A stretch of DNA of 64,000 nt from Escherichia coli. Its GTDB lineage: Bacteria > Pseudomonadota > Gammaproteobacteria > Enterobacterales > Enterobacteriaceae. The DNA is taken from assembly GCF_030384885.1 (NCBI RefSeq), contig NZ_CP128613.1; one strand, written 5' to 3'. A model generated the notes under the pieces. The model was not told the origin of the DNA. It was given only the letters and a program-made list of their open reading frames with translations, and made no database searches. Position numbers and translations under genes: made by a program. Below are positions 1-11,485 of the stretch, piece after piece (the stretch's first letter is position 1; every line of letters begins with the position of its first letter).

Positions 1-2
1 TG

Positions 3-221
3 CGTTATCGCGATAAAGAAGGCAAAATCCATGCTGATTACAACGCGTTCTGGGAGTCGGTTGGCGGCGTATGTGATGCTGAACGCCATTACCGCCTTCC
101 GGCACAGATAGCACGAAAAGAGATTGCCGAAATCGCCAGTAAAAAACGGGCTGAATATCGTCGGCGCTATGAGATGCTCGACGCTATTCAGCCACAAATG
201 GCCACGATGTTTCGCGGTTAA
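3..221 (+). CDS. ybjX: C-terminal fragment of a protein running in from upstream of the window (likely VirK/DUF535-family YbjX); convergent with ybjD
   Basis: Open frame from window edge to TAA at 219-221; assignment rests on synteny next to ybjD, the protein itself was not recognised. Confidence 0.4.
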   Translation, partial: RYRDKEGKIHADYNAFWESVGGVCDAERHYRLPAQIARKEIAEIASKKRAEYRRRYEMLDAIQPQMATMFRG

Positions 222-1876
222 TCCGCGCGACCGCGCGCCAGCCACAGCACGCGTGAGAACATTTTTTTCAGCAGCGTCGGTACGGAATCCACACCACGAC
301 GGCCGGCCTCCATTGCCACTTCAATGGCAAGATCGGGTTTGGAAGAGCGATGGATCGCTTTCGAGATAATTTTGCGCAAATTCATCGGCACATTTTCCGG
401 GATCTGCGCCACGCGGTGGAACACATCAGAAAATCCCTGGCGATACATAAAATGTTCCATATCCAGCGCCGGTAACGCCGTTAAATGTTCTCGTTCGGCT
501 TCCCGATCGTTATTCAACAGGCTGCGTACCGTAGCGGCATACTTCTTCCCGGCTTCATCGCCATCGACCAGCACATGCCATTCAATCCCCATTCGACGGG
601 CGAATTTAACCAGTGGCTTTAGCCCGGACTGGGCAAACTCAATGACCTTGATCCCTTCGGCATCAAAATGATGTCCACACTGACGCGCCAGTTCATTGAT
701 AACCCAGGTTTCCGTTTCGCCTTCCACCAGCAGCCAGCAGCGAGCAAACAGCGATGACGGACGGTTAAAACGAATGTGGAAAGAGATACGTCGGCTGTCT
801 TCGGTACTCAAGCCACTCGGACCCAGACGCCAGGCTGCAACGCGAGAGGACTCACGTACCAGACGGCAAACATGCTCTACCGGCGTTAACGAAAGCAACT
901 CACCCGAGTTGGTGGTGGCAATGCGCTGCAATGGCAGAAGATTCAACAGATGCCAGGCAACTGAAAGCATAATGGGGTGTAAACGGGTTTCTGGATCTTC
1001 GATCAGCAACAATGGACGGGCGTCTTTATCCAGTCGCAATGTGCCTTTTGCCTGCAATAAAGTAGCAAACAGGCCGAGCAAAATAACCCGATACGAGCGC
1101 CCTCCAGGCCGGTCAATCATCCGGTTGATGATATCCAGATAGCGCCAGCTTCGTTGCTCATTACTGGCTCGCCGCCGCATTAAACGATATCGCGCCTGTC
1201 CGGCCCCCTGCTCAGAGAAATAATGCTCAAGCAGCTGCACCATTGCGGAAAGTCCCTGACGAATCTGTCCATCAGAGAGATTTTGCGGATGTGAGGATAA
1301 TTCACGGGCGAGGAAATCGAGCTGGCGCGCGGTGACTTCCACATTAGGGACATTTGGCACCGTGCCGTTACGAATACGGCGCATAAAACGGGCATCACGC
1401 AAGCGCAACACCGGCATTAAACGCACCAGATGGCGTGCCTGATCGTTAATATCCTCGACATCAATCGGATGTCCGTCTTTATCGAGAAAACTGCGGAGTG
1501 TCATCACACTGCCATCTTCCGCACTCTCCCCTTCCAGGCGATAAAAAATTCGATGATAACCATCGGTGCATGGCGTCCAGCATGCTTCCAACGGTCGATA
1601 GCGGCGTACCCGATGACGGCCTGGCAGCGATTCGCGGAAGGTCAAAATAATATGCAGATGATGTTCCCGCCCGTTGATATCTCCCGGCGGAAACCAGAAA
1701 TCGTCGCGCTCAAAATGGTAGAGATCTGATTCTGGCGATAGCAGCAGGGTTAAGGCGTCCAGCAAGCTGGATTTACCCCACGCGTTCTCCCCAATCAGGA
1801 CGTTGTTTTGTTCCAGCATCAACGATAAACGGTTGATACCGCGAAAACCCACAATTTCAACGCGCTCAAGAATCAT
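218..1876 (-). CDS. ybjD: OLD-family ATPase/nuclease-like protein YbjD (552 aa)
   Basis: ORF translation begins MILERVEIVGFRGINRL with Walker A GENAWGKSS; length matches YbjD. Confidence 0.9.
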   Translation of the reverse strand: MILERVEIVGFRGINRLSLMLEQNNVLIGENAWGKSSLLDALTLLLSPESDLYHFERDDFWFPPGDINGREHHLHIILTFRESLPGRHRVRRYRPLEACWTPCTDGYHRIFYRLEGESAEDGSVMTLRSFLDKDGHPIDVEDINDQARHLVRLMPVLRLRDARFMRRIRNGTVPNVPNVEVTARQLDFLARELSSHPQNLSDGQIRQGLSAMVQLLEHYFSEQGAGQARYRLMRRRASNEQRSWRYLDIINRMIDRPGGRSYRVILLGLFATLLQAKGTLRLDKDARPLLLIEDPETRLHPIMLSVAWHLLNLLPLQRIATTNSGELLSLTPVEHVCRLVRESSRVAAWRLGPSGLSTEDSRRISFHIRFNRPSSLFARCWLLVEGETETWVINELARQCGHHFDAEGIKVIEFAQSGLKPLVKFARRMGIEWHVLVDGDEAGKKYAATVRSLLNNDREAEREHLTALPALDMEHFMYRQGFSDVFHRVAQIPENVPMNLRKIISKAIHRSSKPDLAIEVAMEAGRRGVDSVPTLLKKMFSRVLWLARGRAD

Positions 1877-2301
1877 ATCCCCTCCAGAAATATGTGACTT
1901 ATCCTTTACGCTGGCAGTATAACGGGAAAGGCCTTGCTAATACGTGATGACATCACATTTAAGCATGGCAAATGTCTGAAAAATGAGCGAATAATCGCGT
2001 TATACTCCCTCTTGCTGATAAGTCTGCAAAAACAACAAAATCAAATAATTAGCATGATAAATTATTTTTTATTACGCCTAAAGGATTAAATCTTTTGCTT
2101 GCACTACACTGTCAATCAGACAAATGACTATATGGGGCAACCCGCTGTTGCCCTAAATCAAATTTACTGGATTTATTTATCTGGTGAATGACTCGCCTTC
2201 GTTTTTAAAATAGCCGCGCATTATTTCCGTCGTCACTTTTTTACGACGACCCTATAAAACGACCATATTTTTCACAGGGTCAATTTTTAATTGAGGTGGA
2301 T

Positions 2302-2997
2302 ATGTTCAGAAAATTAGCAGCTGAATGTTTTGGTACTTTCTGGCTTGTTTTTGGTGGCTGTGGTAGTGCCGTACTGGCCGCAGGCTTCCCGGAATTAGGT
2401 ATTGGTTTTACCGGCGTGGCGCTGGCATTCGGTTTAACCGTTCTGACGATGGCCTTCGCTGTTGGTCATATTTCTGGTGGTCATTTTAACCCGGCGGTCA
2501 CTATTGGCTTATGGGCTGGCGGACGTTTTCCGGCAAAAGAAGTCGTTGGCTACGTAATTGCCCAGGTTGTCGGCGGTATTGTTGCAGCGGCGCTGCTGTA
2601 TTTAATTGCCAGTGGTAAAACGGGATTTGACGCGGTAGCCAGCGGTTTTGCTTCTAACGGTTATGGCGAGCATTCACCAGGCGGTTATTCCATGCTTTCC
2701 GCGCTGGTAGTTGAACTGGTATTGAGTGCAGGTTTCTTGCTGGTGATCCACGGCGCAACCGACAAATTCGCTCCGGCGGGTTTTGCACCAATTGCCATTG
2801 GTCTGGCATTAACGCTGATTCACTTAATCAGTATTCCGGTGACTAACACTTCCGTTAACCCGGCGCGCAGTACTGCGGTTGCCATCTTCCAGGGCGGCTG
2901 GGCGTTAGAACAACTGTGGTTCTTCTGGGTGGTGCCAATTGTCGGCGGCATTATCGGTGGTCTGATTTACCGGACTCTGCTGGAAAAACGTAATTAA
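2302..2997 (+). CDS. aqpZ: Aquaporin Z (231 aa)
   Basis: Translation [22 protein letters not shown]; ATG at 2302 preceded by GAGGTGGA RBS; the ORF-track GTG start at 2296 is rejected. Confidence 0.95.
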
Positions 2998-3007
2998 TTA
3001 ACGCAGA

Positions 3008-3035
3008 AGGCCTGGCGCAATGTCAGGCCTTTTTT
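3008..3035 (+). terminator. Rho-independent terminator of aqpZ
   Basis: Stem AGGCCTG / CAGGCCT around a 9-nt loop, followed by TTTTT. Confidence 0.7.
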
Positions 3036-3089
3036 AAATATATTGATTCATCTTCCTGTTGCGCTCCTTGATGTGTTAAGCCACATATA

Positions 3090-3330
3090 GTCACTGGCGC
3101 AGGGAGCGCGCAGGGGGCGGCCAATCGCCGCCGCCCCCTGCACCCCCGGGCTCTGGCGAACAAAATCGCCGCTGCGCGGTGCCCTCGACTTATCCCTTGC
3201 GGCTACCGGGTCGGGCGCGAGGTAACATCCCGGTAAAACGCGCCCTCAGCCCACATCCATGTGGGCTGCCCCGGCCTTCAGGGAACACCTCGGCGATTTT
3301 GACGCCACCAACACCGGTGAGGTTTGTAAT
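3090..3330. repeat. GC-rich structured intergenic element with nested palindromes, class not recognised
   Basis: Perfect 12-bp inverted repeat GCAGGGGGCGGC...GCCGCCCCCTGC and a second palindrome CCCACATCCATGTGGG in a block far more GC-rich than flanking intergenic DNA. Confidence 0.4.
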
Positions 3331-3479
3331 TAAAGCGCAAGAATATCTTTAAATGAAAATGAATACCCTACCGATCCTTATGCATAACATTTCCTTTTAA
3401 TTGCAACTTTACTCGTCCTTCTGCTTTCAGTAGTGTGTCATCGCGCATTTCGAATCTTCTTTGCAAGGACTGGGTTTTC

Positions 3480-4379
3480 ATGTTTTCTGGGCTGTTAATC
3501 ATTCTGGTTCCCCTGATTGTGGGTTACCTCATTCCGCTTCGCCAAAAAGCTGCATTAAAGGTTATTAATCAGCTATTAAGCTGGATGGTTTACCTTATTC
3601 TCTTTTTTATGGGTATCAGTCTGGCGTTTCTCGATAACCTCGCCAGTAACCTGTTGGCGATTCTGCATTATTCCGCCGTCAGTATTACCGTTATTTTACT
3701 GTGTAATATTGCCGCCCTGATGTGGCTGGAGCGAGGCCTACCGTGGCGCAACCACCATCAGCAAGAAAAACTCCCGTCGCGTATTGCGATGGCGCTGGAG
3801 TCCCTCAAGCTCTGCGGTGTGGTGGTGATTGGCTTTGCTATTGGCCTTAGCGGATTAGGTTTCTTACAACACGCTACGGAAGCCAGCGAATACACGTTAA
3901 TTCTGCTACTTTTCCTCGTCGGTATTCAGTTGCGCAATAATGGCATGACCTTAAAGCAGATTGTCCTTAATCGCCGGGGAATGATTGTCGCCGTGGTGGT
4001 GGTTGCCAGTTCATTAATTGGTGGTTTAATTAACGCCTTTATTCTTGATCTTCCCATCAATACCGCGCTGGCAATGGCCTCCGGTTTCGGCTGGTATTCT
4101 CTTTCCGGTATTTTATTGACCGAATCTTTTGGTCCGGTAATCGGGAGCGCGGCGTTTTTTAATGATTTGGCCCGTGAGCTGATTGCTATTATGTTGATCC
4201 CTGGGCTGATTCGCCGTAGCCGCTCGACTGCACTGGGCTTATGCGGTGCGACGTCGATGGATTTCACCCTGCCCGTTCTTCAACGTACTGGCGGGCTGGA
4301 TATGGTCCCGGCGGCGATTGTTCACGGTTTTATTCTTAGCCTGTTAGTGCCGATCCTCATCGCCTTTTTCTCTGCATAA
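3480..4379 (+). CDS. lysO: L-lysine exporter LysO/YbjE (299 aa)
   Basis: Translation from internal ATG MFSGLLIILVPLIVGYLIPL; multi-pass membrane protein. Confidence 0.9.
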   Translation: MFSGLLIILVPLIVGYLIPLRQKAALKVINQLLSWMVYLILFFMGISLAFLDNLASNLLAILHYSAVSITVILLCNIAALMWLERGLPWRNHHQQEKLPSRIAMALESLKLCGVVVIGFAIGLSGLGFLQHATEASEYTLILLLFLVGIQLRNNGMTLKQIVLNRRGMIVAVVVVASSLIGGLINAFILDLPINTALAMASGFGWYSLSGILLTESFGPVIGSAAFFNDLARELIAIMLIPGLIRRSRSTALGLCGATSMDFTLPVLQRTGGLDMVPAAIVHGFILSLLVPILIAFFSA

Positions 4380-4412
4380 TACCTCTCTGGCGGTAGATCC
4401 CTGCCGCCAAAA

Positions 4413-4426
4413 TTGCGCTAAATCAA
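4413..4426 (+). promoter_or_regulatory. Candidate FNR box upstream of hcp
   Basis: TTGCG-CTAA-ATCAA matches the FNR consensus TTGAT-N4-ATCAA at 9/10 positions, about 100 bp upstream of the hcp ATG. Confidence 0.35.
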
Positions 4427-4522
4427 TCTCCCTTAAAGTTGCATGAAAAATCCCTTTTATCCCCGCGTTAAGCGTCTTAACCTTAAACATGTATATTAAA
4501 TATAACTTTAAAAGGTGTGATC

Positions 4523-6175
4523 ATGTTTTGTGTGCAATGTGAACAAACTATCCGTACTCCGGCAGGAAACGGCTGCTCATACGCGCAGGGGATGTGTGGT
4601 AAAACGGCGGAAACCTCTGACCTTCAGGATTTACTCATCGCGGCGCTGCAAGGGCTTTCGGCCTGGGCAGTAAAAGCGCGTGAATACGGCATCATCAACC
4701 ATGACGTTGACAGCTTCGCGCCGCGCGCATTTTTCTCAACCCTGACCAACGTTAATTTCGATTCTCCGCGTATTGTCGGCTACGCCCGTGAAGCAATTGC
4801 CCTGCGTGAGGCGCTGAAAGCACAGTGCCTGGCTGTAGATGCCAACGCCCGCGTCGATAACCCGATGGCTGACCTGCAACTGGTGAGTGACGATCTCGGC
4901 GAGCTGCAACGTCAGGCGGCGGAATTTACTCCCAATAAAGATAAAGCGGCGATTGGCGAAAACATTCTCGGCCTGCGTCTGCTCTGCCTGTATGGCCTGA
5001 AAGGTGCTGCCGCCTATATGGAACACGCGCACGTTCTCGGTCAATATGACAACGATATTTACGCCCAGTACCATAAAATCATGGCATGGCTGGGTACCTG
5101 GCCTGCCGATATGAACGCACTTCTCGAGTGCTCCATGGAAATCGGCCAGATGAACTTCAAAGTGATGAGCATTCTGGACGCAGGCGAAACCGGTAAATAC
5201 GGTCACCCGACGCCAACTCAGGTCAACGTCAAAGCGACGGCGGGTAAATGCATTCTGATTTCCGGTCACGATCTCAAAGATCTCTACAACTTGCTGGAAC
5301 AGACCGAAGGCACGGGCGTTAATGTCTACACTCACGGCGAAATGCTGCCTGCCCACGGCTACCCGGAGCTGCGTAAATTCAAGCATCTGGTCGGTAACTA
5401 CGGCAGCGGCTGGCAGAATCAGCAAGTAGAGTTCGCTCGCTTCCCTGGACCTATCGTGATGACCTCGAACTGCATCATCGACCCAACCGTAGGGGCTTAT
5501 GACGATCGTATCTGGACCCGCAGCATCGTTGGCTGGCCGGGTGTGCGTCATCTGGATGCTGATGATTTCTCAGCAGTTATTGCCCAGGCACAACAAATGG
5601 CGGGCTTCCCGTACAGCGAAATTCCGCACCTGATCACCGTGGGCTTTGGTCGTCAGACGCTGCTTGGCGCGGCGGATACGCTGATTGATCTGGTGAGCCG
5701 TGAAAAACTGCGTCATATCTTCCTGCTCGGTGGCTGTGACGGCGCACGCGGCGAGCGCCACTACTTCACCGATTTCGCCACCAGCGTGCCAGATGACTGC
5801 CTGATCCTGACTCTCGCCTGCGGTAAATATCGCTTTAACAAACTTGAGTTCGGCGATATCGAAGGTCTGCCGCGTCTGGTAGATGCTGGTCAATGTAACG
5901 ATGCTTACTCAGCGATTATTCTGGCTGTCACTTTGGCAGAAAAACTGGGCTGCGGTGTCAACGATCTGCCGTTGTCGCTGGTACTCTCCTGGTTCGAACA
6001 AAAAGCGATTGTTATTCTGCTGACGCTGCTTTCTTTGGGCGTGAAAAATATCGTTACCGGCCCGACTGCACCTGGCTTCCTGACGCCAGACCTGCTGGCG
6101 GTACTGAACGAGAAATTCGGCCTGCGTTCTATCACCACTGTTGAAGAAGACATGAAGCAACTGTTGAGCGCGTAA
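4523..6175 (+). CDS. hcp: Hybrid-cluster protein (hydroxylamine reductase / NO reductase), 550 aa
   Basis: Translation [28 protein letters not shown] with the N-terminal Cys cluster; ATG at 4523. Confidence 0.95.
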
Positions 6176-6186
6176 GGAGTTTGTCG

Positions 6187-7155
6187 ATGACGATGCCAAC
6201 CAATCAATGCCCGTGGCGGATGCAGGTTCATCACATTACGCAAGAAACGCCGGATGTGTGGACGATTTCCCTGATTTGCCACGATTACTACCCGTATCGC
6301 GCCGGGCAATATGCGCTGGTCAGCGTGCGTAACTCAGCGGAAACGCTGCGTGCTTACACCATTTCCTCCACGCCAGGCGTGAGTGAATACATCACTCTGA
6401 CCGTGCGGCGGATTGATGACGGTGTCGGTTCCCAGTGGCTGACCCGCGATGTAAAACGCGGTGACTACCTCTGGCTTTCGGACGCGATGGGGGAATTTAC
6501 CTGCGACGATAAAGCAGAAGATAAATTCCTGTTGCTGGCGGCCGGCTGCGGTGTCACACCGATTATGTCGATGCGTCGCTGGCTGGCGAAAAATCGCCCG
6601 CAGGCTGATGTGCAGGTGATCTACAACGTGCGTACGCCGCAGGATGTTATTTTCGCCGATGAATGGCGTGACTATCCGGTGACACTGGTGGCGGAAAATA
6701 ACGTTACCGAGGGTTTCGTTGCCGGACGTCTGACACGTGAACTGCTGACAAGCGTTCCTGATTTAGCCTCTCGTACTGTGATGACCTGTGGCCCGGCTCC
6801 GTATATGGATTGGGTAGAGCAGGAAGTGAAAGCGCTCGGCGTGACGCGTTTCTTTAAAGAGAAGTTCTTTACGCCAGTGGCGGAAGCAGCAACCAGCGGT
6901 CTGAAATTCACCAAACTGCAACCGGCGCAAGAATTTTACGCACCTGTTGGCACCACACTGCTGGAGGCTTTGGAAAGCAACAAAGTTCCGGTTGTCGCCG
7001 CCTGCCGTGCAGGTGTTTGCGGCTGCTGTAAGACGAAAGTAGTTTCCGGTGAATATACGGTGAGCAGCACGATGACGCTGACCGACGCCGAAATCGCAGA
7101 AGGTTATGTACTGGCCTGCTCCTGCCATCCGCAGGGGGATTTGGTTCTCGCATAA
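6187..7155 (+). CDS. hcr: NADH oxidoreductase for Hcp (322 aa)
   Basis: Translation MTMPTNQCPWRMQVHH...; C-terminal 2Fe-2S ferredoxin motif CRAGVCGCCKT; immediately downstream of hcp. Confidence 0.95.
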   Translation: MTMPTNQCPWRMQVHHITQETPDVWTISLICHDYYPYRAGQYALVSVRNSAETLRAYTISSTPGVSEYITLTVRRIDDGVGSQWLTRDVKRGDYLWLSDAMGEFTCDDKAEDKFLLLAAGCGVTPIMSMRRWLAKNRPQADVQVIYNVRTPQDVIFADEWRDYPVTLVAENNVTEGFVAGRLTRELLTSVPDLASRTVMTCGPAPYMDWVEQEVKALGVTRFFKEKFFTPVAEAATSGLKFTKLQPAQEFYAPVGTTLLEALESNKVPVVAACRAGVCGCCKTKVVSGEYTVSSTMTLTDAEIAEGYVLACSCHPQGDLVLA

Positions 7156-7164
7156 TCGTATTAT

Positions 7165-7190
7165 GCCCGATGATATACCTGTCATCGGGC
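7165..7190 (+). terminator. Hairpin downstream of hcr, possible hcp-hcr terminator
   Basis: Stem GCCCGATGA / TCATCGGGC; weak T tract after the stem. Confidence 0.35.
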
Positions 7191-7287
7191 AGTTTAACCG
7201 TTAGTGCCTCATTTTTCTCCCATCTCTTCCCCCTCCGTCAGATGAACTAAACTTGTTACCGTTATCACATTCAGGAGATGGAGAACC

Positions 7288-9006
7288 ATGAAACAAACGG
7301 TTGCAGCTTATATCGCCAAAACACTCGAATCAGCAGGGGTAAAACGCATTTGGGGAGTCACGGGCGACTCTCTGAACGGTCTTAGCGACAGTCTTAATCG
7401 CATGGGCACCATAGAGTGGATGTCCACCCGTCATGAAGAAGTGGCGGCCTTTGCCGCTGGCGCTGAAGCCCAACTTAGCGGGGAACTGGCGGTCTGCGCC
7501 GGATCATGCGGACCTGGCAACCTGCACTTAATCAACGGTTTGTTCGATTGTCACCGTAATCACGTTCCGGTACTGGCAATTGCCGCTCATATCCCTTCCA
7601 GCGAAATTGGCAGCGGCTATTTCCAGGAAACCCACCCGCAAGAGTTATTCCGTGAATGTAGCCATTATTGCGAGCTGGTTTCCAGCCCGGAGCAGATCCC
7701 ACAAGTGCTGGCGATTGCTATGCGTAAAGCGGTGCTAAACCGTGGCGTTTCGGTTGTCGTTTTACCGGGCGACGTGGCGCTAAAACCTGCACCGGAAGGG
7801 GCAACTACCCACTGGTATCACGCCCCCTTACCCGTTGTCACACCTGAAGAAGAAGAGTTACGCAAACTGGCGCAACTGCTGCGTTACTCAAGCAATATCG
7901 CCCTGATGTGCGGTAGCGGCTGCGCGGGGGCGCATAAAGAGCTCGTCGAGTTTGCCGGAAAAATTAAAGCGCCAATTGTTCATGCCCTGCGCGGTAAAGA
8001 ACATGTCGAATACGATAATCCGTATGATGTCGGAATGACGGGATTAATCGGCTTCTCGTCAGGTTTTCATACCATGATGAACGCCGACACGTTAGTGCTG
8101 CTCGGCACCCAATTCCCCTACCGTGCGTTCTACCCGACCGATGTCAAAATTATTCAGATTGATATCAACCCGGCCAGCATCGGCGCGCACAGTAAGGTGG
8201 ATATGGCACTGGTCGGTGATATCAAATCGACTCTGCGTGCATTGCTGCCTTTAGTGGAAGAAAAAACCGATCGAAAATTTCTGGATAAAGCGCTGGAAGA
8301 TTACCGCGATGCCCGCAAAGGGCTGGACGATTTAGCTAAACCGAGTGAGAAAGCCATTCACCCGCAATATCTGGCGCAGCAAATTAGCCATTTTGCTGCC
8401 GATGACGCCATTTTCACCTGTGATGTCGGCACACCAACGGTATGGGCGGCGCGTTATCTGAAAATGAACGGCAAGCGCCGCCTGTTAGGTTCGTTTAACC
8501 ACGGTTCAATGGCCAACGCCATGCCGCAGGCGCTGGGTGCTCAGGCGACAGAGCCAGAACGTCAGGTGGTCGCCATGTGCGGTGATGGTGGTTTCAGTAT
8601 GTTGATGGGCGATTTTCTCTCAGTGGTACAAATGAAGCTGCCAGTGAAAATTATCGTCTTTAACAACAGCGTGCTGGGCTTTGTAGCGATGGAGATGAAA
8701 GCCGGAGGCTACCTGACAGACGGCACCGAACTGCACGACACCAACTTTGCCCGTATCGCTGAAGCGTGCGGTATTACGGGCATCCGCGTAGAAAAAGCCG
8801 CTGAAGTCGATGAAGCCTTGCAACGCGCCTTTTCCATCGACGGCCCGGTGCTGGTGGATGTGGTAGTCGCGAAAGAAGAGTTAGCCATTCCGCCGCAGAT
8901 CAAACTCGAACAGGCCAAAGGATTTAGCCTGTATATGTTGCGCGCAATCATCAGCGGACGCGGTGACGAAGTGATCGAACTGGCGAAAACGAACTGGCTA
9001 AGGTAA
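7288..9006 (+). CDS. poxB: Pyruvate oxidase (ubiquinone), 572 aa
   Basis: Translation [32 protein letters not shown]; thiamine-diphosphate enzyme. Confidence 0.95.
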
Positions 9007-9042
9007 AAAGGGTGGCATTTCCCGTCATAATAAGGACATGCC

Positions 9043-10044
9043 ATGATTGATTTACGCAGTGATACCGTTACCCGACCGAGCCGCGCCATGCTCGAAGCAA
9101 TGATGGCCGCCCCGGTTGGGGACGACGTTTACGGAGACGACCCTACCGTTAATGCTCTGCAGGACTATGCGGCTGAGCTTTCCGGTAAAGAAGCCGCCAT
9201 TTTTCTGCCTACCGGCACCCAGGCTAACCTGGTCGCGCTGCTCAGTCACTGCGAACGCGGCGAAGAGTATATTGTCGGTCAGGCCGCGCATAACTATCTG
9301 TTTGAAGCCGGTGGCGCAGCGGTGCTGGGCAGTATTCAGCCGCAACCCATCGATGCTGACGCCGACGGTACGCTACCGCTGGATAAAGTGGCGATGAAAA
9401 TCAAACCCGACGATATCCATTTCGCCCGCACCAAATTACTCAGTCTGGAAAACACCCACAATGGAAAAGTGCTGCCGCGGGAATACCTGAAAGAAGCATG
9501 GGAATTTACTCGCGAGCGCAATCTGGCACTGCATGTTGACGGTGCGCGTATCTTTAATGCCGTGGTGGCTTACGGCTGCGAACTGAAAGAGATCACGCAA
9601 TATTGTGATTCGTTCACCATTTGTCTGTCGAAAGGTCTTGGTACGCCAGTCGGTTCATTACTGGTCGGCAATCGTGATTACATTAAACGCGCCATCCGCT
9701 GGCGGAAAATGACTGGCGGCGGGATGCGTCAATCCGGCATTCTGGCTGCCGCAGGGATGTATGCGCTGAAAAATAACGTCGCACGCTTGCAGGAAGACCA
9801 CGACAACGCAGCCTGGATGGCGGAGCAGTTGCGTGAAGCAGGCGCGGATGTGATGCGTCAGGACACCAATATGCTGTTTGTTCGCGTCGGACAAGAAAAT
9901 GCTGCCGCGTTAGGCGAATACATGAAAGCGAGAAACGTACTGATTAACGCCTCGCCGATTGTCCGCCTGGTAACCCATCTTGATGTCTCGCGTGAACAAC
10001 TGGCAGAAGTCGCAGCCCACTGGCGCGCTTTCCTGGCGCGTTAA
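9043..10044 (+). CDS. ltaE: Low-specificity L-threonine aldolase (333 aa)
   Basis: Translation [33 protein letters not shown]. Confidence 0.95.
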
Positions 10045-10054
10045 GGAGCGAAAC

Positions 10055-11485
10055 GTGCCGCAACGCATTTTAGTTCTCGGTGCCAGTGGCTACATTGGTC
10101 AGCATCTGGTGCACGCGCTTAGCCAACAAGGGCATCAGACCCTGGCGGCGGCACGTCACGTCGACAGGCTTGAAAAGCTGCAACTGGCAAACGTCAGTTG
10201 TCATAAAGTCGATCTCAGCTGGCCGGATAACCTTCCGGCCCTGTTGCAGAATATCGATACCGTCTATTTTCTGGTGCACAGCATGGGCGAAGGCGGTGAT
10301 TTTATCGCTCAGGAACGCCAGGTAGCTCTTAACGTCCGCGATGCGCTGCGCGAAGCACCGGTTAAACAATTAATCTTTCTCAGTTCATTGCAGGCCCCGC
10401 CTCACGAGCAGTCGGACCATCTGCGCGCCCGTCAGGCTACGGCGGATATTCTTCGTGAAGCGGGTGTCCCGGTGACCGAATTGCGCGCCGGAATTATCGT
10501 TGGTGCAGGTTCAGCAGCGTTCGAAGTCATGCGCGATATGGTCTACAACCTGCCAGTGTTAACACCGCCACGCTGGGTTCGTTCACGCACCACGCCCATC
10601 GCGCTGGAAAACTTGCTGCACTATCTGGTGGCGCTGTTAGATCATCCGGCCAGCAAACACCGCATCTTCGAAGCCGCCGGACCAGAGGTGCTCAGTTATC
10701 AGCAACAGTTTGAACATTTTATGGCGGTGAGCGGTAAGCGCCGCTGGTTAATCCCCATCCCCTTTCCCACCCGCTGGATTTCGGTGTGGTTTCTTAATGT
10801 GATTACCTCCGTACCGCCCACCACCGCCAAAGCGTTGATTCAGGGGCTGAAACATGATCTGCTGGCGGATGACACCGCGCTACGTGCACTCATCCCACAA
10901 CGGCTGATCGCTTTCGATGACGCGGTACGTCGCACGTTGAAAGAAGAAGAAAAGCTGGTCAACTCCAGCGACTGGGGATACGACGCTCAGGCCTTTGCCC
11001 GCTGGCGACCGGAGTACGGTTATTTCGCCAAACAGGCGGGGTTTACCGTTAAAACGTCCGCCAGCCTTGCGGCTTTATGGCAGGTGGTGAATCAAATCGG
11101 CGGTAAAGAGCGTTATTTCTTTGGCAATATTTTGTGGCAAACCCGGGCGTTGATGGACCGCGCGATCGGTCATAAGCTGGCGAAAGGCCGCCCGGAGCGT
11201 GAATATTTGCAGACCGGAGATGCGGTGGATAGCTGGAAAGTGATTGTCGTTGAACCGGAAAAACAACTTACGCTGTTATTTGGCATGAAAGCGCCGGGGC
11301 TGGGACGACTGTGTTTTACCCTGGAAGATAAAGGTGACTATCGTACTATCGATGTTCGCGCATTCTGGCATCCGCACGGTATGCCGGGGCTGTTTTACTG
11401 GTTACTGATGATCCCCGCGCATCTGTTTATTTTTCGCGGAATGGCAAAACGAATCGCCAGACTGGCAGAACAAAGCACAGATTAA
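10055..11485 (+). CDS. ybjT: Putative NAD(P)-binding oxidoreductase YbjT (476 aa), GTG start
   Basis: AAGGAG RBS at 10043-10048 then GTG at 10055; translation (M)[18 protein letters not shown] with Rossmann GxxGxxG. Confidence 0.85.

Follow-up and report, generated by a model that had tools for sequence, protein, structure and literature searches.

The Escherichia coli core gene ybjD encodes a stand-alone OLD-family protein with a predicted GajA-type C-terminal half

Background

The described proteins most like YbjD belong to the OLD family. The GajA proteins of PADLOC subfamily PDLC00094, which are Class 2 OLD proteins and include the GajA of the Gabija pair at locus L093, share the DUF2813 and OLD-like_TOPRIM domains with YbjD. 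The L093 GajA also has the VEGETE, DGD, D-x-E and S-K-P motifs and the C-terminal helical domain of YbjD, and the two align from end to end. GajA of this type is nevertheless only 31% identical to YbjD and has a His in the H-loop where YbjD has an Asn. It is encoded with GajB in a defence island, whereas ybjD is in a fixed housekeeping locus, with no GajB adjacent to it or elsewhere in the window (the whole 64-kb stretch of E. coli DNA that was analysed).

The top full-length structural match to YbjD is the GajA of Bacillus cereus (PDB 8sm3, 8x5i and others; Foldseek E 7.5e-19, TM up to 0.60), although identity is approximately 13–15%. This GajA is a nucleotide-sensing nickase in which the ATPase domain regulates cleavage and does not power it, which fits the published behaviour of YbjD K35A. 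It acts as a 4:4 complex with GajB. Overexpression of GajA is non-toxic, whereas that of YbjD is toxic. The solved Class 2 OLD CTRs of Burkholderia pseudomallei and Xanthomonas campestris (PDB 6nk8 and 6njv/w/x) have only 15–21% identity to YbjD.

The Class 1 proteins P2 Old and Thermus scotoductus OLD (TsOLD) have the stand-alone context, the family-level domain order and the metal-A ligands in common with YbjD, and an Asn in the H-loop is often seen in Class 1 as well. Class 1 OLD proteins lack a C-terminal helical domain and have their catalytic basic residue in a loop approximately 7 residues after the metal-B Glu (PMC7049728). P2 Old is phage-borne, whereas relatives of YbjD are virtually absent from viral contigs, and YbjD, unlike P2 Old, does not kill recBC cells. 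A further comparison, of domain type, inheritance and phenotype, is with Cran1 of the Sulfolobales (archaeal OLD clade U11), an ATPase-nickase that is inherited vertically across the whole order and, like YbjD, is apparently not a defence protein. The toxicity of overexpressed Cran1 depends on its ATPase domain, as does that of YbjD. However, Cran1 is essential and cell-cycle regulated whereas ybjD is dispensable, and the two belong to different clades and domains of life.

That YbjD is an OLD protein encoded on its own has already been published, as has a first study of it under phage challenge. YbjD was the search seed used in defining the OLD classes (Schiltz et al. 2019, PMC6755086). In May 2026, phage-challenge and deletion experiments were reported by Atahualpa et al. 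(PMC13261556), who proposed the name oldB and a Class 1 assignment. Knockout of ybjD left susceptibility to 68 BASEL phages unchanged, while induction of YbjD at a non-toxic inducer level reduced the plating of Bas18 and Bas20 and made the plaques of T7-like phages smaller (PMC13261556). Toprim point mutants and a deletion of the full Toprim (aa 1–377 retained) behaved like wild type in the phenotypes measured, deletion of the ATPase domain abolished the phenotypes, and K35A kept the phenotype and was more toxic (PMC13261556). In the same study overexpression was toxic, there was no recBC-dependent killing, and the gene was described as non-essential, its Keio deletion having no reported growth phenotype (PMC13261556). 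DNA-repair papers in which ybjD is mentioned use the region between aqpZ and ybjD only as a site for insertions, with no functional link. The prevalence of Class 1 OLD published for DefenseFinder is 0.45% of genomes. Almost all E. coli genomes have ybjD, which is hard to square with this figure, and therefore YbjD is probably not counted in it.

Results

The ybjD locus

The RefSeq annotation names the locus ybjD, 'ATP-dependent endonuclease'. The features of the gene and its surroundings are collected in Table 1.

Table 1. Positions of ybjD, its sequence features and its neighbours in the window
Feature	Position	Strand	Basis
3' end of ybjX (VirK/YbjX family), convergent neighbour	1..221	(+)	translation and annotation
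TTAA, overlapping stop codons of ybjD (-) and ybjX (+)	218..221	both	stops of both strands
ybjD coding sequence, OLD-family ATPase-Toprim nuclease (predicted)	218..1876	(-)	ATG-start ORF, 552 aa and stop; Pfam; RefSeq annotation
C-terminal helical domain (aa 468-552) with D472-M-E474 and S-K513-P	221..475	(-)	Class 2 type architecture
Toprim domain (aa 376-467), metal-A/B ligands E385, E389, D438, D440	476..751	(-)	Pfam PF20469, conservation
H-loop TTNS (aa 321-324), Asn323 replacing canonical His	905..916	(-)	alignment
Walker B / D-loop stretch LLLIEDPETRLH (aa 289-300; E293, E296, H300)	977..1012	(-)	conservation and alignment
Helical insert in ATPase domain (aa ~177-277)	1046..1348	(-)	AF2 secondary structure
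Walker A / P-loop GENAWGKSS (aa 29-37, K35)	1766..1792	(-)	read directly from sequence
N-terminal ABC-type ATPase region (aa 1-375, DUF2813), including helical insert	752..1876	(-)	Pfam, AF2 model, alignment
ybjD-aqpZ divergent intergenic region, AT-rich, ~44% GC	1877..2301		composition
aqpZ (aquaporin Z), divergent neighbour	2302..2997	(+)	ORF and annotation

The initial annotation described ybjD as a backbone gene, convergent with ybjX and divergent from aqpZ, without an obvious partner gene, its product being placed in the OLD family on a Walker A motif. Each of these points holds. The reading frame of ybjX terminates at 219–221 in the window translation, within the TTAA shared with ybjD, and the ybjD/ybjX pair has been catalogued as a convergent excludon (PMC12288877). 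No terminator-like site was found between the two genes in a scan; the terminator-like matches that the scan did return fall within coding sequence and are not meaningful. The promoter of ybjD must be in the intergenic region upstream of the gene, though none is recognised there, and a scan of 1–2400 returned no sigma-70 consensus site. Regulation of ybjD by the SOS response was rejected, since a search of the upstream region for a LexA box (CTGT-N8-ACAG, one mismatch allowed) was empty.

The 9 kb to each side of ybjD are free of helicases, mobile elements and defence genes, and the whole window has no GajB-like sequence. The GC content of ybjD is approximately 53%, the same as that of its flanks, and a foreign origin of the gene was rejected on this basis.

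The ATPase half

DUF2813 matches YbjD over aa 1–375 (E 2e-160), Pfam AAA_15 is also above its cutoff, and the N-terminal region aligns to the ATPase domains of TsOLD and GajA. In the AF2 model the beta-sheet lobes are at aa 2–28, 72–131 and 289–350. The helical insert is modelled at lower confidence, with pLDDT <50 at aa 172–176 and 224–241. TsOLD has a four-helix dimerisation domain inserted in its ATPase fold (PMC7049728), and the insert in YbjD appears from the model to occupy the equivalent position.

The Walker A motif is invariant in 81/81 Enterobacteriaceae sequences. Across the wider clade the position of K35 is Lys in 100 of the 114 representatives and is replaced in 14. The LLLIEDPE at aa 289–296 is a Glu-variant Walker B, and the Walker B/D-loop stretch aligns to LIEEPEISLH in GajA and IEEPEMYLH in TsOLD. 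It is invariant in the Enterobacteriaceae, save that aa 292 is I or V, and its key residues are conserved in the clade (E293 in 62/68, E296 in 63/68 and H300 in 67/68). The H-loop aligns to T-H320-S of GajA and T-H310-S of TsOLD. N323 is invariant in the 81 Enterobacteriaceae sequences, while the residue varies in the clade (n=68), being Asn in 43, His in 11, Gln in 8 and Tyr in 4. Class 1 homologues, too, commonly have Asn in place of the H-loop His, therefore the Asn is not diagnostic of class. A His at this position was considered as a mark of helicase-linked members; it is present in both Gabija-linked proteins, but also in the stand-alone proteins P0212 and P0253, and as a marker of helicase linkage it is a weak lead.

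The Toprim and C-terminal helical domains

A search for a C-terminal Toprim, proposed in the initial annotation as the check on the family assignment, identified OLD-like_TOPRIM (PF20469) at aa 376–440 with E 3.8e-16 and 59.8 bits against a cutoff of 23.2. The Pfam domain matches of YbjD are far beyond chance. The invariant Glu and DxD that make up metal site A of OLD proteins are present as E385, D438 and D440. The second metal site would be formed by E389 and D472-x-E474, with K513 as the catalytic Lys, an assignment that comes from the motifs and from superposing the model on 6nk8. All seven residues are invariant in the 81 Enterobacteriaceae sequences and are kept in 113–114 of the 114 representatives, down to approximately 30% identity. 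The initial annotation gave lack of a Toprim or of catalytic residues as grounds for rejecting its proposal, and neither is lacking.

Attempts to align the helical domain residue by residue with the sequences of the solved Class 2 CTRs ended at the DxD, and structure was relied on beyond this point. By superposition of the predicted structure and motif logic, D472, E474 and K513 would correspond to T506, E508 and K562 of the B. pseudomallei protein; the equivalence of the metal-B ligand and the Lys therefore does not come from sequence alignment. In the AF2 model four helices span aa 473–547, and K513 is within this helical bundle, 39 residues past E474. Position +7 after E474 is a conserved Gly, G481.

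Class 1 or Class 2

Sequence and model both indicate that the C-terminal region of YbjD is of the Class 2 (GajA/BpOLD) type, not Class 1. The spacing from the metal-B Glu to the catalytic basic residue is 7 in P2 Old and TsOLD and 30–54 in GajA and BpOLD, and at 39 residues that of YbjD is within the latter range. In place of the Class 1 arrangement, YbjD has a helical domain with K513 at +39, and it thus has the Class 2 combination of a Toprim with a helical C-terminal domain that would supply the catalytic Lys. Only in its gene context is YbjD Class 1: ybjD is isolated, without an adjoining UvrD/PcrA/Rep-like helicase, in the window and in 80 species. Loci L093 and L094 have such a helicase in tandem. 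A complete Gabija system is GajA with an adjacent GajB, and at this locus there is a GajA-like gene only.

The scores against the PADLOC HMMs, from which the Gabija and Old calls were made, follow the same division. YbjD scores 267 bits (E 7e-80) with the GajA model PDLC00094 against 84 bits with the Old model, which covers only aa 252–473. P2 Old itself goes to the Old model, at 712 bits, and PDLC00094 claims the L093 GajA (3.9e-228), which adjoins a GajB (8e-266). In hhalign the YbjD clade aligns to the L093 GajA over 540 columns (E 3e-112) and to P2 Old over 191 columns only, at aa 254–449, ending just past the DxD. TsOLD is likewise a poorer structural match to the C-terminal region than are the Class 2 CTRs. 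With the full-length YbjD profile searched against the PDB, TsOLD (3.6e-22) and GajA (3e-20) are approximately equidistant; the Class 2 affinity is therefore mainly in the C-terminal half. P2 Old and GajA had been named together as relatives in the initial annotation. As members of one family both stand, but the GajA type is far closer to YbjD than is P2 Old.

True Gabija GajA-GajB pairs occur within the Pfam/PADLOC subfamily of YbjD, and among defence systems it is true Gabija GajA proteins that are most closely related to it. Descent of YbjD from Gabija through loss of GajB is not supported, as YbjD and the Gabija-linked proteins part at the root of a midpoint-rooted NJ tree without outgroups and are on opposite sides of it. 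Long relatives of 1,000–1,900 aa were considered as OLD-helicase fusions and rejected, there being no helicase domain detected in them.

Inheritance and selection

Among 5426 complete genomes of E. coli, 5424 have the 2.4-kb ybjD locus. The gene is intact in 80/80 Enterobacteriaceae species sampled, in the synteny hcp-lysO-aqpZ-ybjD-ybjX, and Yersinia has the same locus with 65% identity. ybjD is thus inherited vertically, in one syntenic slot across the Enterobacteriaceae and Yersinia, and the identity of YbjD decays in step with taxonomy out to Vibrio. Carriage by phages or plasmids was rejected: matches are limited to 2 of 2.9 million viral contigs and 34 of 72,556 plasmid records. One of the viral matches has the same sequence as the window protein and presumably comes from E. 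coli DNA, and most of the plasmid records are Mb-sized replicons. The patchy distribution, defence-island or mobile context and horizontal spread of mobile defence genes are not seen for ybjD.

Purifying selection on ybjD (omega 0.047) is equal to that on its housekeeping neighbours AqpZ (0.044), LysO (0.048) and Hcp (0.033). The Toprim core (aa 376–450) is the most constrained segment, with dN 0.012 and omega 0.008, compared to dN 0.07–0.14 elsewhere in the protein.

The neighbourhoods of 11 stand-alone relatives from diverse organisms have no common neighbour gene and no linked helicase, and a conserved partner gene in distant relatives was rejected for want of any that these neighbourhoods share. 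No neighbour is kept outside the Enterobacterales. Genes for PolB, PolA or a beta-CASP nuclease adjoin some relatives of YbjD.

Discussion

It is likely that ybjD (oldB) encodes a chromosomal stand-alone OLD-family enzyme with a GajA-like C-terminal half, acting, by analogy, as an ATP-gated Toprim nickase or nuclease. Such an enzyme would form homo-oligomers and would nick or cleave DNA under nucleotide control. Bound to the ABC domain, ATP would restrain it, as in GajA, where ATP binding inhibits and H320A relieves the inhibition. Hydrolysis of ATP would probably be slow, Asn standing for the H-loop His; in TsOLD, H310A abolishes ATPase activity. Relatives of YbjD are the source of what is proposed here on its nuclease activity, its substrate (DNA or RNA), its oligomeric state and the way in which ATP affects it. 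Against use of the nuclease are the published Toprim mutants and deletion, which made no difference, and the knockout, which had no phenotype against the 68 phages (PMC13261556).

The function of this enzyme in the cell can be read in several ways. One, proposed in PMC13261556 (oldB), is that YbjD is a true anti-phage effector of Class 1 which, at its native level, senses infection and stops phage by itself, as P2 Old or the OLD of Vibrio cholerae does; this is unlikely. The phage challenge proposed in the initial annotation had already been published (PMC13261556): overexpression does reduce some phages, Bas18 and Bas20 and the T7-like plaques being affected at a non-toxic inducer level, but the knockout is unchanged against the 68 BASEL phages. 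The characterised bacterial members of the family are defence proteins and the gene context of ybjD is isolated, and both points favour this reading. However, the phenotype needs neither the Toprim nor K35, whereas P2 Old and V. cholerae OLD need both activities, the recBC-dependent killing is absent, and the C-terminal architecture and sequence are not of the Class 1 type. A fixed, syntenic, vertically inherited gene that is outside any defence island and virtually absent from phages and plasmids is also atypical for defence, and the DefenseFinder prevalence of Class 1 OLD likewise counts against this reading. The dependence of the phenotypes on the ATPase domain, with Toprim deletion and point mutants like wild type, could instead mean that the ATPase domain is the sole functional part and the Toprim a vestige, YbjD binding or sequestering DNA or a host factor under the control of ATP. 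A vestigial Toprim would show the opposite of the pattern found, in which the Toprim core has the lowest dN of the protein and its catalytic residues are invariant over 114 representatives at approximately 30% identity while the Walker A Lys is replaced in 14; the constraint therefore counts against this reading, which is extremely unlikely.

YbjD might also be half of a split Gabija, with an SF1 helicase of the core genome (UvrD, Rep or HelD) acting in trans in the place of GajB. YbjD shares its PADLOC subfamily with a GajA that is translationally coupled to a GajB, and according to 10.1101/2023.05.02.539174 GajA alone requires GajB for defence. This proposal is purely inferential, however, no helicase is encoded in the window, and the sampled stand-alone relatives are also without a linked one, making it very improbable. 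Another reading is that of a domesticated housekeeping enzyme and not a defence protein, a Toprim nickase or RNase of chromosome or RNA maintenance and the bacterial counterpart of Cran1, which is tentatively possible. A clade tracking the species tree is the signature that led to Cran1, and here one locus runs from Escherichia to Yersinia with identity falling with taxonomy as far as Vibrio. The omega equal to that of housekeeping neighbours, the value for the Toprim core and the PolB, PolA or beta-CASP nuclease genes beside some relatives are in keeping with such a role. On the other hand, ybjD is non-essential and its Keio deletion has no reported growth phenotype, there is no SOS box upstream and no neighbour kept outside the Enterobacterales, and no interaction or expression data tie YbjD to replication or repair, the repair papers using the intergenic insertion site only.

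YbjD could, as a tentative suggestion, be a helicase-less nuclease of the GajA type (Class 2 architecture), domesticated as a vertically inherited core gene of the Enterobacterales and probably of the Vibrionales too, with a function in the cell that depends on the Toprim, for example nucleotide-gated nicking to maintain the genome or RNA. The function kept by selection would require the Toprim active site. Since the Toprim core is the most constrained segment, the anti-phage effect published for overexpression, which is independent of the Toprim, is probably not the native activity of YbjD. The nuclease site is what selection protects, and assays that are Toprim-independent therefore probably miss the real function.

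As a discovery the locus matters little, given the existing literature; what is new here is that the nuclease half of YbjD appears to be built like GajA and not like phage P2 Old, and that within this vertically inherited enteric gene it is the nuclease half that is conserved most. The 'Class 1' label invites comparison with P2 Old, with its tRNA cleavage and RecBC sensing, whereas the predicted architecture suggests sensing of nucleotides and nicking of DNA in the style of GajA. If the GajA-type housekeeping reading is true, 'Class 1 oldB' would be right by gene context only and the Toprim-independent anti-phage effect would be a side-effect of overexpression. YbjD, one of the remaining uncharacterised core genes of E. 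coli, would then be a bacterial analogue of archaeal Cran1 and would be a case from the bacteria for the view, prompted by Cran1, that some OLD clades serve housekeeping and not immunity.

The ybjD gene and its locus

The Walker A motif reported for the ybjD product in the initial annotation is present by direct reading of the sequence, and a search for the C-terminal Toprim domain was positive. In Pfam, aa 1–375 match DUF2813 (E 2e-160) and aa 376–440 match OLD-like_TOPRIM (PF20469, 59.8 bits; cutoff 23.2). The plus-strand frame of ybjX (1–221 in the window) ends at 219–221, therefore the overlapping stop codons of the convergent ybjD and ybjX genes share the TTAA at 218–221. On the other side, the divergent gene aqpZ occupies 2302–2997 of the plus strand, so that the described gene orientations were correct for both neighbours. 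The description of ybjD as a backbone gene also holds, as 5424 of 5426 complete E. coli genomes contain the 2.4 kb locus with the same three annotated genes. Only housekeeping genes are present in the 9 kb on either side of ybjD, and its GC content is unremarkable.

Coordinates and divergence of ybjD features
Feature	Position	Strand	Details
ybjD ORF	218–1876	minus	ATG start, 552 aa
Walker A GENAWGKSS	aa 29–37 (window 1766–1792)	minus	direct sequence reading
YbjD Toprim core	aa 376–450		dN 0.012, ω 0.008
Other four YbjD segments			dN 0.07–0.14, ω 0.03–0.07

Neither a sigma-70 consensus site nor a LexA box was found upstream of ybjD, and no terminator was found in the ybjD-ybjX junction. The gene pair appears as a convergent excludon in a list based on RNA-seq (PMC12288877). 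Its end-to-end layout is retained in the Escherichia, Citrobacter, and Salmonella loci; in Yersinia there is a 137 bp gap. Window positions 1–2400 match E. coli strain 2013C-4282 at 100% identity and a further 5422 complete E. coli genomes at only 95–99% (approximately 97.5% among the matches listed), therefore this is a relatively divergent E. coli lineage. In the complete genome of E. coli GABEEC10 the match is interrupted at approximately 1973, in the aqpZ-ybjD intergenic region, and resumes elsewhere, in two places in the record, which suggests an insertion or rearrangement.

Previous work on YbjD

The initial observation was real and its interpretation right, with both already in print: the OLD identity of ybjD is known and this is not a new kind of system. 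E. coli YbjD (b0876) was the query of an OLD family census, which placed the E. coli protein among the isolated, 'Class 1' homologues (Schiltz et al. 2019, PMC6755086). The gene is expressed, and the name oldB, for a Class 1 OLD, has been proposed (Atahualpa et al. 2026, PMC13261556). The phage challenge suggested in the initial annotation is part of the same study: the ybjD deletion of the Keio collection left susceptibility to 68 BASEL phages unchanged, while arabinose-induced expression lowered plating of Bas18 and Bas20 and gave smaller plaques of Bas64–68 (PMC13261556). These phenotypes persisted on deletion of the Toprim domain or mutation of its acidic residues, were lost on deletion of the ATPase domain, and were kept, with higher toxicity, in K35A (PMC13261556). 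P2 Old kills recBC(ts) cells and YbjD does not (PMC13261556).

Inheritance and distribution

When one genome per species was scanned, 166 relatives were identified. The best 80 of these, from about 30 Enterobacteriaceae genera, are 80–99% identical, full length, and free of internal stops. They have the hcp-lysO-aqpZ-ybjD-ybjX arrangement in common, even after loss of aqpZ or ybjX. The same locus is found in Yersinia pseudotuberculosis (poxB-hcr-hcp-lysO-ybjD-ybjX-macAB-cspD), with a ybjD product that is 65% identical. Identity drops with taxonomy, through Serratia (64%), Proteus (56%), and Aeromonas (45%) to Vibrio, Salinivibrio, and Photobacterium (40–43%), and the distant relatives are also stand-alone genes amid housekeeping genes. 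Salmonella diarizonae, one Escherichia sp., Yersinia, and a number of further genera lack aqpZ or have a truncated copy (loci L022, L004, L099, and others), and ybjX was undetected in Klebsiella and Raoultella. Since ybjD is intact in all of the loci with such losses, it is the most stable of the three genes.

YbjD relatives are encoded on only two of 2.9 million viral contigs. One of the two proteins matches that of the window exactly, and its contig is presumably E. coli DNA. Matches to plasmid records are likewise few (34 of 72,556), mostly on Mb-sized replicons, and several of the Mb-sized PLSDB 'plasmid' records are evidently chromosomes. Four E. coli 'plasmid' records of 42–88 kb (NZ_CP134387.1, NZ_CP148399.1, NZ_CP148584.1, and NZ_CP148327.1) carry ybjD-ybjX at 99.6–99.8% identity. 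These could be chromosomal segments captured by plasmids, or artefacts of assembly or labelling.

Active site residues and OLD class

Walker A, the Walker B and D-loop residues E293, D294, E296, and H300, the Toprim residues E385, G386, E387, E389, D438, and D440, and, downstream of these, D472-M-E474 and S512-K513-P514 are invariant in 81 Enterobacteriaceae sequences. In a wider sample of 114 representatives of 50%-identity clusters, which share about 30–54% identity with YbjD, all have E385 and D440, 113 have E474 and K513, and only 100 have the Walker A Lys. The ABC-type nucleotide-binding site of YbjD is intact, with a non-canonical H-loop, and the two-metal Toprim site is complete, accompanied by a Class 2 type helical domain.

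The H-loop residue is Asn323, which aligns with GajA H320 and TsOLD H310. It is invariant in the Enterobacteriaceae, and Asn is found in 43 of 68 clade members. An H-loop Asn has been noted as common among Class 1 homologues, and ATPase activity is abolished in TsOLD H310A (PMC7049728). In GajA H320A, inhibition by ATP is partly relieved (PMC8136825).

The position of the catalytic basic residue differs between the classes. In Class 1 it is a loop residue, 7 positions past the Glu of metal site B (Ts E480 to R487, P2 E543 to K550), whereas the Class 2 Lys belongs to a helical domain of its own (Bp E508 to K562) (Schiltz 2020). GajA D511 and K541 are each essential (PMC8136825). In YbjD, K513 is 39 residues past E474, the +7 position is a conserved Gly, and AlphaFold models have four helices at aa 473–547 (pLDDT 88.4 for full-length YbjD and 94.6 for aa 356–552 alone). 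The PADLOC GajA model PDLC00094 scores 267 bits on YbjD and covers the entire C-terminus; the PADLOC Old model scores 84 bits, with the match ending at aa 473, against 712 bits on P2 Old. P2 Old can be aligned to the YbjD-clade profile only over aa 254–449. Gene context alone thus makes YbjD 'Class 1'; the sequence and predicted structure of its nuclease half are of the GajA/Class 2 type. In a published phylogeny, Class 2 is nested inside Class 1 diversity (PMC12796447).

Gabija-linked and other relatives

On one contig from a viral collection (L093), a DUF2813-Toprim protein 31% identical to YbjD over aa 1–548 is encoded ahead of a UvrD-family helicase gene, with a 4-nt overlap. PADLOC identifies the pair as GajA (PDLC00094, 3.9e-228 over the full length) and GajB (PDLC00114, 8e-266). 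This GajA and the YbjD clade, D-x-E and S-K-P motifs included, can be aligned over 540 columns (E 3e-112). P0264, on locus L094, is a second case with an overlapping UvrD-type gene downstream; eleven further sampled relatives are stand-alone. With YbjD and the Gabija-linked pair on opposite sides of the root in a midpoint-rooted NJ tree, the difference may stem from helicase loss in YbjD or from helicase gain on the Gabija branch.

The L093 pair lies in a defence-island-like cluster (135–10163 of this IMG/VR contig), flanked by a 1,120-aa HEPN_Swt1 and DUF499 protein and an Eco57I/MmeI-like N6 methyltransferase. Among the 114 representatives, both Gabija-linked members retain the H-loop His, within a small all-His NJ clade, and 47 of 63 on the YbjD side have Asn at position 323. 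The correlation between His and helicase linkage is not strict, because the stand-alone proteins P0212 and P0253 also have His.

Six relatives (P0149, P0162, P0163, P0165, P0175, and P0196; locus L089, 392–4360) are 1,000–1,900 aa long, with a large internal insert in the DUF2813 ATPase and an OLD Toprim. Their C-termini are extended by several hundred to more than 1,000 aa, in which no Pfam match was found. On L089 and L090 the long OLD gene adjoins a 1,020-aa gene without a Pfam match, followed on L090 by a DNA polymerase I gene. On L087 (162–4882), and also on L088, a DUF2813-OLD gene shares its strand with a PhD/PIN toxin-antitoxin pair and a family-B DNA polymerase gene, at spacings of 26–47 bp. 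This arrangement may be an operon tying the OLD nuclease to PolB. A beta-CASP/RMMBL metallo-beta-lactamase-fold nuclease gene adjoins a stand-alone DUF2813-OLD gene on two contigs, convergent with a 4-nt overlap on L097 (1858–4883) and upstream on the same strand on L103 (810–4047). This is possibly a recurrent association.

Selection and the role of YbjD

Nei-Gojobori estimates from up to 78 orthologues gave a median ω of 0.047 for YbjD, with 0.044 for AqpZ, 0.048 for LysO, and 0.033 for Hcp. Because dS is near saturation, the comparison between YbjD segments is robust mainly in dN. The Toprim core is lowest in both dN and ω, therefore the domain that was dispensable in the 2026 study is the one most protected by selection. 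A vestigial domain would be expected to have the opposite pattern. We infer that YbjD uses its nuclease site in its native function, of which the overexpression phenotype is not a readout. The Toprim-independent effect might, speculatively, reflect binding of DNA or a host factor by the ATPase domain.

On the model of GajA, BpOLD, and TsOLD, YbjD oligomers would form through the helical insert at aa ~177–277. ATP would be bound and, because of N323, hydrolysed slowly, and nucleotide binding would keep the protein inactive until this restraint is lifted, leading to DNA nicking or cleavage. The greater toxicity of K35A agrees with inhibition by ATP, as in GajA. Two putative roles seem roughly equally likely: conditional defence, and a housekeeping or domesticated function like that of Cran1, a vertically inherited and apparently non-defence archaeal OLD-family protein. 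What is added here to the known features of YbjD is incremental: its C-terminus is of Class 2 type, its subfamily includes Gabija proteins, its Toprim core is under extreme constraint, and its synteny is family-wide. These points help in the design of experiments.
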